Virus record (IMG/VR): IMGVR_UViG_2541047699_000005
DNA: 28,826 bases
Reading direction: 5' to 3' (one strand)
Source: a virus
Taxonomy: Duplodnaviria > Heunggongvirae > Uroviricota > Caudoviricetes
The position numbers were made by a program, and so were the translations under genes. Shown piece after piece: positions 3,699-28,826 of the stretch. Position 1 is the first letter of the stretch; each line of letters begins with the position of its first letter. The notes under the pieces were generated by a model that made no database searches, was not told where the DNA came from, and saw only the letters and a list, made by a program, of their open reading frames with translations.

Positions 3699-3758
3699 TC
3701 GTCATGCTCCATAAACGACAAAACCGCCCGGAGGCGGTTTCACATGAAATATTTTGCA

Positions 3759-10774: not shown

Positions 10775-10800
10775 AAAATAAAAAACCCGCCAGCGGCGGG
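10775..10800 (-). terminator. Intrinsic-terminator-like hairpin just upstream of the major tail gene
   Basis: Minus-strand RNA cccgcc-GCU-ggcggg followed by UUUUUAUUUU, lying between the stop of the upstream ORF (10822) and the SD/ATG of the major tail gene. Confidence 0.45.
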
Positions 10801-10821
10801 TGGGTAAAATCATTAACGACC

Positions 10822-12273: not shown

Positions 12274-12306
12274 CAGAAACTCCTGCCCGCAACACTGTGC
12301 GGGCAT

Positions 12307-12328
12307 AAAAAAACCGCGTCGGCGCGGT
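12307..12328 (-). terminator. Intrinsic terminator downstream of the major capsid gene
   Basis: Minus-strand RNA accgcg-CCGA-cgcggu followed by seven U, about 20 nt after the capsid stop (12350). Confidence 0.55.
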
Positions 12329-23084: not shown

Positions 23085-23123
23085 ACAAAAAAACCCGCTT
23101 GTGGGCGGGTTTTGTTTGCTTTT
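23085..23123. terminator. Bidirectional intrinsic terminator downstream of the Q-like gene (candidate tR')
   Basis: Hairpin acccgc-ttgtgg-gcgggt flanked by A7 on one side and a T-rich tract on the other, about 70-90 bp downstream of the Q stop. Confidence 0.5.
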
Positions 23124-25626: not shown

Positions 25627-25657
25627 CAGGAAAAAACAAAACCCGCCGAAGCGGGTT
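25627..25657 (-). terminator. Intrinsic terminator downstream of the hok-family gene
   Basis: Minus RNA aacccgc-UUCG-gcggguu followed by UUGUUUUUU; a second stable hairpin (ggcgaggga-gaaa-ucccucgcc, about 25693-25714) lies between it and the hok stop. Confidence 0.5.
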
Positions 25658-25725
25658 AAGTGCGGGTGCGTTGAGGATGCCTGACACATCAGAGGCGGCG
25701 AGGGATTTCTCCCTCGCCAAGTCTC

Positions 25726-26392: not shown

Positions 26393-26531
26393 ATTCACTC
26401 CTTAAATATAGCAACTAAAACAAACAACGATTTAACAGTAGGAATTGTTTTTATAACATATGAACGGTGCAAGATCTATCCAGATGAAGCCTCCCCTCAC
26501 ACCCCCCGTCTCATTACATGCATTTACTATC

Positions 26532-27047
26532 TCACCGTAAAACATCCTCCACGCTTATCAGTCCGTTTCGCTTCAGGTAGTCCATCGCCTTCTCCGGTAA
26601 TTTGCAGTCCGGCTTGGCTTTTTTCAGTTGGCTGACCAGTCGTTTAACCCACATTGTTAATTCGCTAACCTGATTGCCGGAAGCTGGTGGGTTGTCGGCT
26701 TTACCCAGAATGACAGCACTGCAGGCCTCTTTGAGTACCCAATCAACAGCATCTTTCCATGCTCCTGTTTCGACTGGTGGATTCTCACGCTTTACCTGTT
26801 CATAAAAGCGCACGGCTTTAACCAGTCCTTCTGATGTCAGTGGCACAGGCGGGGCAGTGAATAACGCCTGAATTTCATAGCTCGGCCTGTCGTTGCAATC
26901 CTCTTTTGTCGGTACATATTTCCAGTCACCAACCCACGGCTCCCCCTGTGAGTCCGTAATGCCTTTTTTCACGTAGCGATATCGCCATGCAACTGGTTTT
27001 GCCTGCCCTGCCGTTTCATGTCCTTCCTGATAATTAATCTCGCTCAT
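26532..27047 (-). CDS. Hypothetical 171-aa nin-region protein
   Basis: ORF-track ORF; its ATG overlaps the stop of an upstream 58-aa ORF (ATGA). Confidence 0.6.
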   Translation of the reverse strand: MSEINYQEGHETAGQAKPVAWRYRYVKKGITDSQGEPWVGDWKYVPTKEDCNDRPSYEIQALFTAPPVPLTSEGLVKAVRFYEQVKRENPPVETGAWKDAVDWVLKEACSAVILGKADNPPASGNQVSELTMWVKRLVSQLKKAKPDCKLPEKAMDYLKRNGLISVEDVLR

Positions 27048-27220
27048 TCATCGCCCCACTCATCACAATATGCTTCGACCGGAGTTTTTCCTGCTTCGTA
27101 GTCATAACGCCATGCTTCAGCATCAGCGGCACTTCCACCGCGTAACTCTGCATAATCCATTAACAGTTCATGCCATTCTTCAAAACTGGCGTTATATTTA
27201 GTTGAACCAAAATCAGCCAT
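27044..27220 (-). CDS. Hypothetical 58-aa protein (below the ORF-track size cut-off)
   Basis: Read by hand: ATG at 27220 preceded by AGGAAGAA, giving MADFGSTKYNASFEEWHELLMDYAELRGGSAADAEAWRYDYEAGKTPVEAYCDEWGDE, with TGA overlapping the next ATG. Confidence 0.4.
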   Translation of the reverse strand: MADFGSTKYNASFEEWHELLMDYAELRGGSAADAEAWRYDYEAGKTPVEAYCDEWGDE

Positions 27221-27395
27221 TTTGTTCTTCCTCTTCGTCTTTTATTTCGTGGTATGAGTAATTGCAGTAGTTAAAGAAAATATCTTTAGCTTCATCCTGT
27301 ATTTCATCTGGTGTTGCATCATCATCCACTTCGAATTCATCCTCGAAATCTCCACCGGCTATTCCCGTTTCAATAATTATTTTGAATTTTCGCAT
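27213..27395 (-). CDS. Small highly acidic 60-aa protein
   Basis: MRKFKIIIETGIAGGDFEDEFEVDDDATPDEIQDEAKDIFFNYCNYSYHEIKDEEEEQNG; about one third Asp/Glu; AT-rich coding sequence; a stable hairpin sits between an AGGAGG and the ATG. Confidence 0.5.
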   Translation of the reverse strand: MRKFKIIIETGIAGGDFEDEFEVDDDATPDEIQDEAKDIFFNYCNYSYHEIKDEEEEQNG

Positions 27396-27490
27396 TTCAC
27401 TACCGCCCTTTAGGGCGGCCTCCTGATGTTCTGAGGGTGCAGAAATCCCTCCGGTTAAGGATTAAATTGTATTTACAGCGCTAAATTTAT

Positions 27491-27847
27491 TTATTCAGTT
27501 CTGGATTTTGTCGCCCTGCGTATCCGCGCTTTCGCGTTACGCTCAATCTGAATTAACTTTTCTATATTTTTCCGCCTTTCCTGTTCCTCCTGGCGCAATA
27601 GCCTTACATCATCTGCCAGTCTGGTTTCTCTTTTCGCCACTGAGAGCATCCAGTCAAACGGCTCCACAACTGCACCGCAGATTTTACAGCGGACCTGACG
27701 CTCTTTTTCGTCAACCCGGACAGAAGCGTGATGGCAGTATGGTCTTTCCGATGGCTCATAAAGAAAATTAACCTGATTACGAGGGTCATCCTCTTTTACC
27801 GGAAATAAAACGATATTGCTTAACTCATCCTCTGGTTTTATTTCCAT
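27491..27847 (-). CDS. Hypothetical 118-aa protein with a possible zinc-binding motif
   Basis: Contains C-HH ... CKIC spacing (PYCHHASV...RCKICG) and a basic coiled-coil tail. Confidence 0.5.
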   Translation of the reverse strand: MEIKPEDELSNIVLFPVKEDDPRNQVNFLYEPSERPYCHHASVRVDEKERQVRCKICGAVVEPFDWMLSVAKRETRLADDVRLLRQEEQERRKNIEKLIQIERNAKARIRRATKSRTE

Positions 27848-28286
27848 GCTCCTCTCCTTTGATGCGAATGCCAGCGACGCGTAATGCGTGTTCTAGGTCA
27901 ATCAGGTAAAGCCAACTGCCATTTTCTTTAGGTATCATGACATGTCGCTCATCTGCATTTATCGGGTGTCCATATCGAAGGTCGTAGCGAGTCGGTAATT
28001 GAACTTCCCGCGCTTCCAGTTCAGCAATACGCTTGCTCCCATCAGAGATAACGCCTTCGTAATACTCACGCTGCTCGTTGAGTTGTGATTTTGCTTCTTC
28101 CAGTCCATCCAGCAAATCAGCGATAATATCCGCTTCCCGATGACGGATGTGACGCTTAAACGCAGCAAGAGCCGCATCACAATCCCGTTCAGCATTTGGG
28201 CTGTCCGGGATAGCCTGATACCACGCCAGCGTCGACTGATAGTTTTGTGCTGCCTCACGAAGCGCCTCATAGTTAACCTCTCTCAT
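27825..28286 (-). CDS. Hypothetical 153-aa nin-region protein
   Basis: ORF-track ORF overlapping the next gene by 23 bp; predicted coiled-coil, no motif recognised. Confidence 0.5.
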   Translation of the reverse strand: MREVNYEALREAAQNYQSTLAWYQAIPDSPNAERDCDAALAAFKRHIRHREADIIADLLDGLEEAKSQLNEQREYYEGVISDGSKRIAELEAREVQLPTRYDLRYGHPINADERHVMIPKENGSWLYLIDLEHALRVAGIRIKGEEHGNKTRG

Positions 28287-28579
28287 TGAGCCACCTCCTG
28301 ATAAATCACCGCATGCCCCAGTTTCTCCGCCAGTGCCAGCTCTGCCTTAGCGCCCGCTGACCGCTGCCAGCCATTCAGCATGTAAATCGCATCCACACAA
28401 CGAATCATTGCCATGCAAATATCCATGTAGTGCGGCTGTGTCAGCCCGTCCGGAAGTACTGCCGGGTTTAAGACGGTATGCCCTTCCCGTTTCAGTTCCT
28501 CTTCCACCTTGTGAAATGCCTCACGGTTGAAATTTTCATATCCCGTCATTGGACCGGCAATATAAACTCTCACCCTCAC
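28283..28579 (-). CDS. DUF4406-like protein (nucleoside 2-deoxyribosyltransferase-like fold)
   Basis: 98-aa ORF with a GTG start; N-terminal RVYIAGPMTG motif typical of this family; start overlaps the upstream stop (GTGA). Confidence 0.55.
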   Translation of the reverse strand: MRVRVYIAGPMTGYENFNREAFHKVEEELKREGHTVLNPAVLPDGLTQPHYMDICMAMIRCVDAIYMLNGWQRSAGAKAELALAEKLGHAVIYQEVAQ

Positions 28580-28826
28580 TCCATCACCTCCTGAAAGTTT
28601 CCCCGATAGAACGCCAGCACACGCTGCATAACTTCGCTCCTCCTGCTCTCACGACAAATTATGTTCTGGTGCCTGTCGTAGCGGCGCATTTCGCCGTCTG
28701 GTAACGACCAGATAAGGTCCGGATCAACCACTGCAGGTTTCTTCACCTTTGCCCTTGAGAGTTTTTTGCGAGCATTTTGCCAGTCCTTACGCGCCTGTTC
28801 AGACGGGAATAACCCGTAACCAGAGT
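28576..28826 (-). CDS. Partial CDS (C-terminal part only; N-terminus lies beyond the window end)
   Basis: The minus-strand frame is open from the window edge to TGA at 28578-28576 (...KPAVVDPDLIWSLPDGEMRRYDRHQNIICRESRRSEVMQRVLAFYRGNFQEVME), coupled to the next gene. Confidence 0.4.
   Translation of the reverse strand, partial: SGYGLFPSEQARKDWQNARKKLSRAKVKKPAVVDPDLIWSLPDGEMRRYDRHQNIICRESRRSEVMQRVLAFYRGNFQEVME

Follow-up and report, generated by a model that had tools for sequence, protein, structure and literature searches.

The open reading frame at positions 27213..27395 of the window (the whole stretch of 28,826 nucleotides of viral DNA that was analysed), read on the minus strand, is a genuine gene, far beyond what would be expected by chance, and codes for a 60-amino-acid protein of the DUF7167 family. 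It belongs to the delayed-early accessory genes of a Qin/Rac-like lambdoid prophage, and its product is a stand-alone mini-protein, for which the likeliest mechanism would be that of a stoichiometric polyanionic decoy (probability roughly 0.4). The gene is already catalogued in RefSeq (WP_001224665.1, named "DUF7167 family protein"), Pfam and PHROG, and is therefore not a discovery; the family is without an assigned function. No member with an assigned function was found, nor, in the papers searched, any mention of DUF7167, PF23768 or the accession.

The predicted translation of the ORF is MRKFKIIIETGIAGGDFEDEFEVDDDATPDEIQDEAKDIFFNYCNYSYHEIKDEEEEQNG. It includes 20 aspartate and glutamate residues (33 %) and 5 lysine and arginine residues, which gives it a net charge of -15 and an isoelectric point (pI) of 4.05. 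The preliminary description of this DNA had reported a protein of 60 amino acids, about one third of them Asp or Glu, with two acidic runs; the 20 acidic residues in 60 agree with this, and both runs are present, DFEDEFEVDDD at residues 16-26 and DEEEEQ at residues 53-58. Residues 2-53 match the Pfam DUF7167 (PF23768) HMM with 54.5 bits (E 1.2e-14, gathering cut-off 24.4), and PHROG 1997 is matched over the full length (E 2.7e-30). At least 1000 contigs encode exactly this 60-amino-acid protein, and comparisons with relatives gave dN/dS values of 0.018 (dS 0.37), 0.058 and 0.088. The core of the family, [FI]-E-V-[ED]-D-D-A-T-x-E-E-I, which was confirmed by an alignment of 109 members, is present in the protein of the window as FEVDDDATPDEI. 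Forms of 84-93 amino acids, extended at the N-terminus, are found in some databases; such an extension is excluded for this window, since an in-frame TAA is located upstream and there is no start codon before the ATG.

The 1-kb region around the gene is also present, with 100 % identity, in the chromosome of E. coli M1/5, where it is part of a prophage. DNA matching this region was found in 2714 of 5426 complete E. coli genomes (about half), and most of the region in 1203; the E. coli copies number about 4600. The genes of the M1/5 prophage are arranged in the order P, DUF1627, a hypothetical gene, DUF4406, Ead/Ea22-like, a 118-amino-acid zinc ribbon and DUF7167, followed by the genes for the 58- and 171-amino-acid proteins, further small genes, hokD, DUF968, RusA and Q, with tRNAs, lysis genes and terminase downstream of Q. 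The M1/5-type element is a Qin/Rac-like lambdoid prophage, in which DUF7167 is located in the equivalent of the nin region, between P and Q, and this gene order bears out the earlier placement among early genes of the nin region. The Stx2 phage ArgO145 carries the same three-gene cassette in its leftward early operon, with the recombination genes on one side and int on the other, so that the cassette is a mobile module of early genes and not one tied to the nin region. Truncated or frameshifted alleles of DUF7167 are common in prophages, and the gene is thus dispensable in lysogens.

The cassette consists of DUF7167 and the two ORFs that follow it on the minus strand. The first of these (27044..27220; PHROG 519, RefSeq WP_016245378.1) codes for an acidic protein of 58 amino acids with a net charge of -11, and its start overlaps the DUF7167 stop by 8 nt (ATGGCTGA). 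A GAGGA sequence at 27233..27229, within the Glu codons of the DUF7167 tail, is located 8 nt upstream of its AUG. This overlapping ORF had been described as overlooked; it is indeed present at the 3' end of DUF7167, and it is no overlooked gene, since it is annotated in RefSeq and its dN/dS of 0.05-0.17 indicates purifying selection. For the exact protein 120 contigs are recorded, and for a cluster-mate at least 1000. Third in the trio is the gene at 26532..27047 (minus strand; PHROG 660), which codes for 171 amino acids and has an ATGA overlap with the 58-amino-acid ORF. The three genes appear to form a translationally coupled trio, in which translation of the second and third would depend on that of DUF7167. 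Upstream, the minus-strand ORF at 27491..27847 (PHROG 1621) codes for the basic 118-amino-acid zinc-ribbon protein (pI 8.5), which is given here as context.

The intergenic leader of DUF7167 is 95 nt long (27396..27490, minus strand), and its 3' 68 nt (27396..27463) travel with the gene over mosaic junctions. It contains a Shine-Dalgarno (SD) sequence, AGGAGG (27419..27424, minus strand), which in the linear sequence is 23 nt (27418..27396) before the AUG. The order on the minus strand is AGGAGG (27424..27419), CCGCCC (27418..27413), UAAA (27412..27409), GGGCGG (27408..27403), UAGUGAA and the AUG at 27395, so that a hairpin, G-CCGCCC/UAAA/GGGCGG-U (27402..27419, minus strand), with six G-C pairs and a closing G27419.U27402 pair, can be drawn between the SD and the start codon. 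Both elements had been pointed out in the preliminary description, and the stem-loop was also predicted by RNAfold, in the MFE as well as the centroid structure, at about -14 to -15.6 kcal/mol. With the hairpin folded, 16-18 of the 23 nt are taken out and about 5-7 nt are left between SD and AUG. Of the SD, no more than the last G can enter the stem, as a G.U pair, and the AUG is unpaired, 7 nt beyond the stem. Of the two effects that had been proposed for folding, bringing the SD into range fits this geometry and the precedent of genes 38 and 25 of phage T4, whereas sequestration of the start is unsupported because of the 7 nt between the stem and the AUG.

Perfect 6-bp GC-rich hairpins are commoner in the window than in Markov shuffles of it (18 seeds vs 6.7 ± 3.1). 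The other intergenic gene-strand hairpins have T-runs and are terminator-like; the leader hairpin of DUF7167 is the only one of the hairpins in the window that separates an SD from an AUG, and it lacks a T-run. It is followed by UAGUGAAAUG on the minus strand and CCTCCTGATG on the plus strand, and is not a terminator, since there is no T-run; no intrinsic terminator was found in 26400-28826. The same interval gave no Rfam 15 match at E ≤ 1. A boxB element was rejected on reading the sequence, as the loop is a tetraloop and not the boxB pentaloop.

In T4 gene 38 a stem-loop shortens the SD-AUG spacing from 22 to 5 nt, and in T4 gene 25 an intervening stem-loop shortens it from 27 to 11 nt (PMC3014915). 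Mutations that destabilise the stem reduce translation there (PMC3014915). The leader of DUF7167 is similar in that a strong SD is too far from the start in the linear sequence and a stem-loop would restore the distance, here from 23 to about 5-7 nt: as at the T4 sites, the SD lies more than about 15 nt away, the folded stem cuts the spacing to within about 5-11 nt, and the SD core and the AUG are free. Unlike the T4 cases, to which it has no sequence relationship, it is found in one E. coli prophage clade with an imperfectly kept stem, and is a candidate only.

Seventeen leader variants were compared. AGGAGG was kept in 15 of them, with AGGAAG and AGGAGA in one each, no indels were present, and 95 % of the cells were paired. 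The loop is GAAA (GNRA) in most relatives, compared with UAAA in the window, and several C-to-U changes in the stem retain G.U pairs. At one locus (L206), all seven pairs are preserved despite five stem substitutions, among them a change from C:G to A:U (simulation p ~0.015), and another (L215) resembles a one-sided intermediate of this exchange. One compensatory pair was found among the 17 variants. Low divergence of the leader (2/68 vs 10/61 third codon positions) was rejected as a sign of selection, since the tract continues over the first 88 nt of the coding sequence and mosaic recombination explains it equally well. Taken as a whole, the comparative support for a maintained leader hairpin appears mixed and weak.

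The hairpin could also be a neutral, mRNA-stabilising or processing stem-loop, the gene being translated poorly or by other means. This is consistent with the covariation over the whole alignment of 17 variants, which was not significant with shuffle controls, with the one or two uncompensated mismatches that persist in the stems of several lineages (L091-L094, L160), with the low-divergence tract, which has the look of a recombination tract, and with the more distant relatives outside the E. coli clade, which have no hairpin and use ordinary ribosome-binding sites, with an SD at 7-8 nt and often TGATG or TAATG coupling. Such a hairpin would however leave a strong AGGAGG without purpose at 23 nt, too far to act directly, and it does not explain why the SD-AUG spacing is constant in all 17 variants and canonical once folded, or why the stem at L206 has kept its pairs; nor is it a terminator. 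It is thus possible, with rather less than an even chance. The reading as a split SD, specific to this E. coli clade, is the better of the two explanations, with slightly better than even odds. In the E. coli lineage translation would then start from a split ribosome-binding site with the GC hairpin folded out, as in T4 gene 38.

A DUF7167 profile search of 1.84 billion representative proteins gave 238 clusters at E ≤ 1e-3, nearly all of them stand-alone proteins of 50-60 amino acids. A tblastn search with one family member (P0196) gave no matches. Members are found in lambdoid prophages of E. coli, Shigella and Klebsiella, in virulent Klebsiella Guernseyvirinae and Enterococcus Herelleviridae phages, in E. 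coli phage phAPEC8 and Lactococcus phage 949, and also in one Pseudomonas genome and one Bacilli metagenome-assembled genome, so that the range covers temperate and virulent phages of Proteobacteria and Firmicutes. Rare variants of the architecture include tandem duplications (P0088, P0103), a fusion to YopX (P0114) and fusions to a Cys-rich ribbon at the N-terminus (P0161) or C-terminus (P0180); P0161 has in addition a polyacidic tail of about 100 amino acids and a net charge of -75.

Every one of the 109 full-length aligned members is acidic, with a net charge from -18 to -3 (median -11) and 27 % Asp and Glu at the median. The acidity is tied to particular positions: the acidic fraction is 93 % in the column of E22, 74 % at D24, 94 % at D25, 80 % at D26 and 86 % at D38, and is 69-87 % at positions 29-31 (E31 87 %) and 72-74 % at positions 33-34; over positions 22, 24-26, 30-31, 34 and 38 it is 74-94 %. 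Positions 4, 6, 8, 21, 23, 32, 36, 40, 44, 46 and 48 are hydrophobic in 94-100 % of the members, and the N-terminus is basic (R2, K3, K5). The family has a high net negative charge on a conserved surface, the exposure of which is deduced from the pattern of strands and helix.

Structure prediction, which had been suggested earlier as a check, was carried out with AlphaFold2 and the 109-sequence alignment and gave a model with a mean pLDDT of 90.2. The model is a confident prediction of a small beta-beta-alpha fold that ends in an acidic tail: two strands (residues 2-8 and 17-23) are followed by a helix at 29-43, the chain is ordered to about residue 51, and the acidic tail from about residue 52 is of low confidence. 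The predicted fold matched none of the solved structures and none of the known DNA mimics. In the model of the tandem member P0103 (mean pLDDT 88.3, pTM 0.70) each half is composed of strand, strand, helix and strand, and strand 3 of the first copy continues into strand 1 of the second as a beta3-beta1' hairpin. The tandem model hints that single-domain members may dimerise via their edge strands.

With phage DNA mimics such as T7 Ocr and ArdA the DUF7167 protein has in common that it is small, early, very acidic and stand-alone and moves between phages, and that its carboxylates lie on a conserved patch that is probably surface exposed; its D+E content is 33 %, compared with 29 % in Ocr. Further phage inhibitors that mimic DNA are T7 gp5.9, lambda Gam, T4 Arn, Ugi and phi29 p56. 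Unlike T7 Ocr and ArdA, to which it has no sequence or profile similarity, DUF7167 is predicted to have a different, small beta-alpha fold, and at 60 amino acids it is too small to imitate a long segment of DNA unless oligomeric. The elongated all-helical dimer of the Ocr type, with carboxylates tracing bent B-DNA, is not seen in DUF7167. A Pfam scan of the protein at E ≤ 0.1 returned only DUF7167 and a sub-threshold AnkX_ins, a PDB sequence search with the family profile did not return Ocr, and the Pfam HMMs of ArdA, ArdB and KlcA did not match the protein. The earlier suggestion of a DNA-mimic anti-defence protein is drawn from composition, without similarity in sequence or fold to known mimics or anti-defence proteins, and is still plausible because the acidity is a conserved trait of the family and is concentrated on one patch.

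The closest functional model for this proposal is TifA (Orf65) of an enterococcal phage, like DUF7167 a small, electronegative phage protein, which inhibits type IV restriction enzymes (PMC11322646). It binds and inactivates DNA-cleaving defence enzymes and is no explicit mimic of B-DNA; its predicted fold is SH3-like and 21 % of its residues are acidic (PMC11322646). On this description DUF7167 is probably not TifA, which differs in topology and is less acidic, and the two are at most functional analogues. Identity with lambda orf60a or other exo-xis proteins was also rejected, as a tblastn search of 50,697 phage records gave no lambda match and nothing similar appeared in a paper on exo-xis modelling. 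T7 Gp2 and Xp10 P7 are small proteins that bind RNA polymerase; alignment of DUF7167 with an approximate Gp2 sequence by hhalign gave a probability of 0.2 % over 9 columns. The PADLOC-DB HMMs did not match the DUF7167, 58-amino-acid, 171-amino-acid, 118-amino-acid or Ea22-like proteins, and a role of DUF7167 in prophage-encoded defence was rejected on this ground.

As a decoy, DUF7167 would present a patch that runs from the end of strand 2 through the following loop to the middle of the helix (E22, D24-D26, 29-31, 33-34 and D38), and the acidic tail would add to these conserved carboxylates. Patch and tail together would occupy, and so block, a basic surface by which a host or defence protein binds nucleic acid. 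This would be nucleic-acid mimicry in a broad sense and would place the protein in the same functional class as Ocr and TifA. The target should be widely conserved, since the family occurs in phages of both Proteobacteria and Firmicutes, and the acting unit may be a dimer, as the natural tandem-domain members suggest. Within the decoy model an anti-defence role is preferred, though unproven. Acidity is frequent among small phage proteins, and the DDAT-x-EE motif may in part be structural, as a turn and helix N-cap, and not an interface; both are points against a decoy, as is the dispensability of the gene in lysogens. A more far-reaching version, in which DUF7167 would be a new fold family of nucleic-acid-mimicking inhibitors, acting as a beta-sheet dimer that blocks a DNA machine of Proteobacteria and Firmicutes, with its dosage set by the split ribosome-binding site in E. 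coli prophages, appears doubtful. Candidate targets would then include type I restriction-modification or BREX-type complexes, RecBCD/AddAB and SMC-type complexes.

The neighbourhoods of DUF7167 at about 20 diverse loci were compared. They consist of early genes and of genes for replication, recombination and DNA modification, including SNF2 helicase, VapE, ERF, NinB, SSB, DUF2800-type and other exonucleases and SbcC-like proteins, and, among those of the modification type, Mom, Nmad5, N6/N4 and C5 methylases and PAPS reductase; late sigma-like regulators also occur. No partner gene recurred among these loci, which fits an autonomous accessory function in early, replication and modification settings, and no conserved linkage to defence or anti-defence genes was found across the loci compared.

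The replication and recombination genes in these neighbourhoods raise the possibility that DUF7167 is an accessory subunit or modulator of phage replication or recombination and not an inhibitor of the host or its defences; it might act as regulator or chaperone of an exonuclease, SSB or annealase encoded next to it, or mimic an acidic tail of the SSB type. In the Klebsiella Guernseyvirinae the gene overlaps the start of a gene for a 454-amino-acid exonuclease, with a Gp2.5-like SSB and a DNA polymerase downstream, in the Enterococcus Herelleviridae the overlap is with the end of an exonuclease gene, and in the window it is downstream of the replication gene P; elsewhere ERF, NinB, SNF2 helicase, VapE, DUF2800 and SbcC-like genes are close by. 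Replication modules are, however, where small early genes pile up anyway, no replication or recombination neighbour is constant, and the cassette of ArgO145 is about 5 kb from recT and the exonuclease genes, so that this role is considered unlikely.

A function as counter-ion or chaperone that keeps a basic phage protein, for example a zinc-ribbon DNA binder, soluble or inactive would suit the basic zinc-ribbon protein (pI 8.5) encoded upstream in the window, the Cys-rich ribbon fusions of P0161 and P0180 and the Zn-ribbon ORFs flanking DUF7167 at L004, L097 and L182, but is very improbable, as a functional link to zinc-ribbon neighbours was rejected for want of enrichment (adjacency 3/46 vs 11/382 for other ORFs, Fisher p = 0.18), the 95-nt leader separates the gene from that for the 118-amino-acid protein, and other genes take the place of the latter at mosaic junctions.

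Overall, DUF7167 is an ordinary accessory gene, so far uncharacterised, and a fair choice for screens of anti-defence or host-takeover functions. Should neither the decoy nor the split ribosome-binding site be real, it adds another to the small accessory genes of lambdoid prophages. The leader is a second natural candidate, outside the T-even phages, for accommodation by the ribosome of a hairpin between SD and AUG. The family is also found, without an assigned function, in virulent phages of Klebsiella, Enterococcus and Lactococcus, and if its members inhibit a conserved DNA-binding machine of defence or repair, they would provide a very small and easily synthesised tool and a new anti-defence fold, of relevance to the design of phage therapy against these hosts.

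The C-terminal acidic tail of the DUF7167 protein is encoded in part by the Glu codons GAA GAG GAA GAA, which on the minus strand also form a GAGGA Shine-Dalgarno sequence (window 27229-27233), placed 8 nt upstream of the AUG at which the 58-aa gene, overlapping this one, begins. Because these tail codons thus also supply the Shine-Dalgarno sequence of the next gene, the acidic-tail sequence is, as read from the DNA, under a double constraint, serving both the protein and a putative ribosome binding site.

At the other end of the gene, some lineages (leader homologues L091, L189, L217, L221 and L224; family proteins P0003-P0007) have an upstream ATG in frame with the leader, and gene callers therefore give DUF7167 proteins of 84-93 aa whose reading frame runs across the hairpin. 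P0004 has lost the canonical ATG (M1 to R), so that the long form is the only one that could be made. In the window, an N-terminal extension of this kind is ruled out by an in-frame TAA. The leaders of two IMG/VR loci, L042 and L075, represent one junction variant lacking both the AGGAGG and the outer stem, with GCCC-GAAA-GGGC alone remaining, and P0076 is a 146-aa in-frame read-through of DUF7446 into DUF7167. Mosaic breakpoints lie directly 5' of the Shine-Dalgarno sequence or within the 5' arm of the stem.

Five other sites on the minus strand of the window, each a GC hairpin with a T-run after it, look like intrinsic terminators: 12285-12328, where the hairpins form a tandem pair, 10785-10801, 3723-3738, 23093-23110 and 25641-25656, the last with a C(UUCG)G tetraloop. 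A Shine-Dalgarno sequence and ATG directly follow the hairpins at 12285 and 10785. The 11-mer GAGGGATTTCT is common to two further hairpins on opposite strands, GAGGG-ATTTCT-CCCTC (25698-25717, plus strand) and GAGGG-AUUUCUGCA-CCCUC in the DUF7167 leader (27435-27455, minus strand). This sharing could be due to chance, since any 11-mer from the leader would be expected to find about one match of this kind.

In two groups of virulent phages the DUF7167 gene and an exonuclease gene overlap by about 10 nt (loci L086 3501-3671 and L088 3501-3671), the DUF7167 gene being upstream in Klebsiella Guernseyvirinae and downstream in Enterococcus Herelleviridae phages. In one record, ON107243, the 55-aa DUF7167 protein itself is named 'PD-(D/E)XK phosphodiesterase', probably an annotation slip from the adjoining gene.

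Two occurrences recorded outside E. coli, in the Collinsella sp. MAG JAIHTM010000290 (L002) and in Actinobacillus phage vB_Apl-pPE4 (PP818812; matches H11 and H45), are 95-97 % identical in DNA or protein to the E. coli prophage cassette, which suggests mis-binning, contamination or a doubtful host assignment.

The integrase of the same prophage in E. coli M1/5 (L001 22827-23877) is annotated as frameshifted, and this copy may consequently be unable to excise. The M1/5 prophage also holds relBE, hokD, dicB and three tRNA genes. Among homologues of window 27213-27395, a truncated DUF7167 allele with a premature stop at codon 37, ending in DDDATPEEIHDGA*, is very common, being found in Shigella flexneri CP182557 (L003) and about 25 IMG/VR loci (e.g. 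L188, L190, L192-L202 and L209-L228). Frameshifted forms also occur, one of which, P0059, is present on 107 contigs. The abundance of the truncated allele, together with these frameshifts, indicates that the DUF7167 gene is often inactivated in resident prophages.
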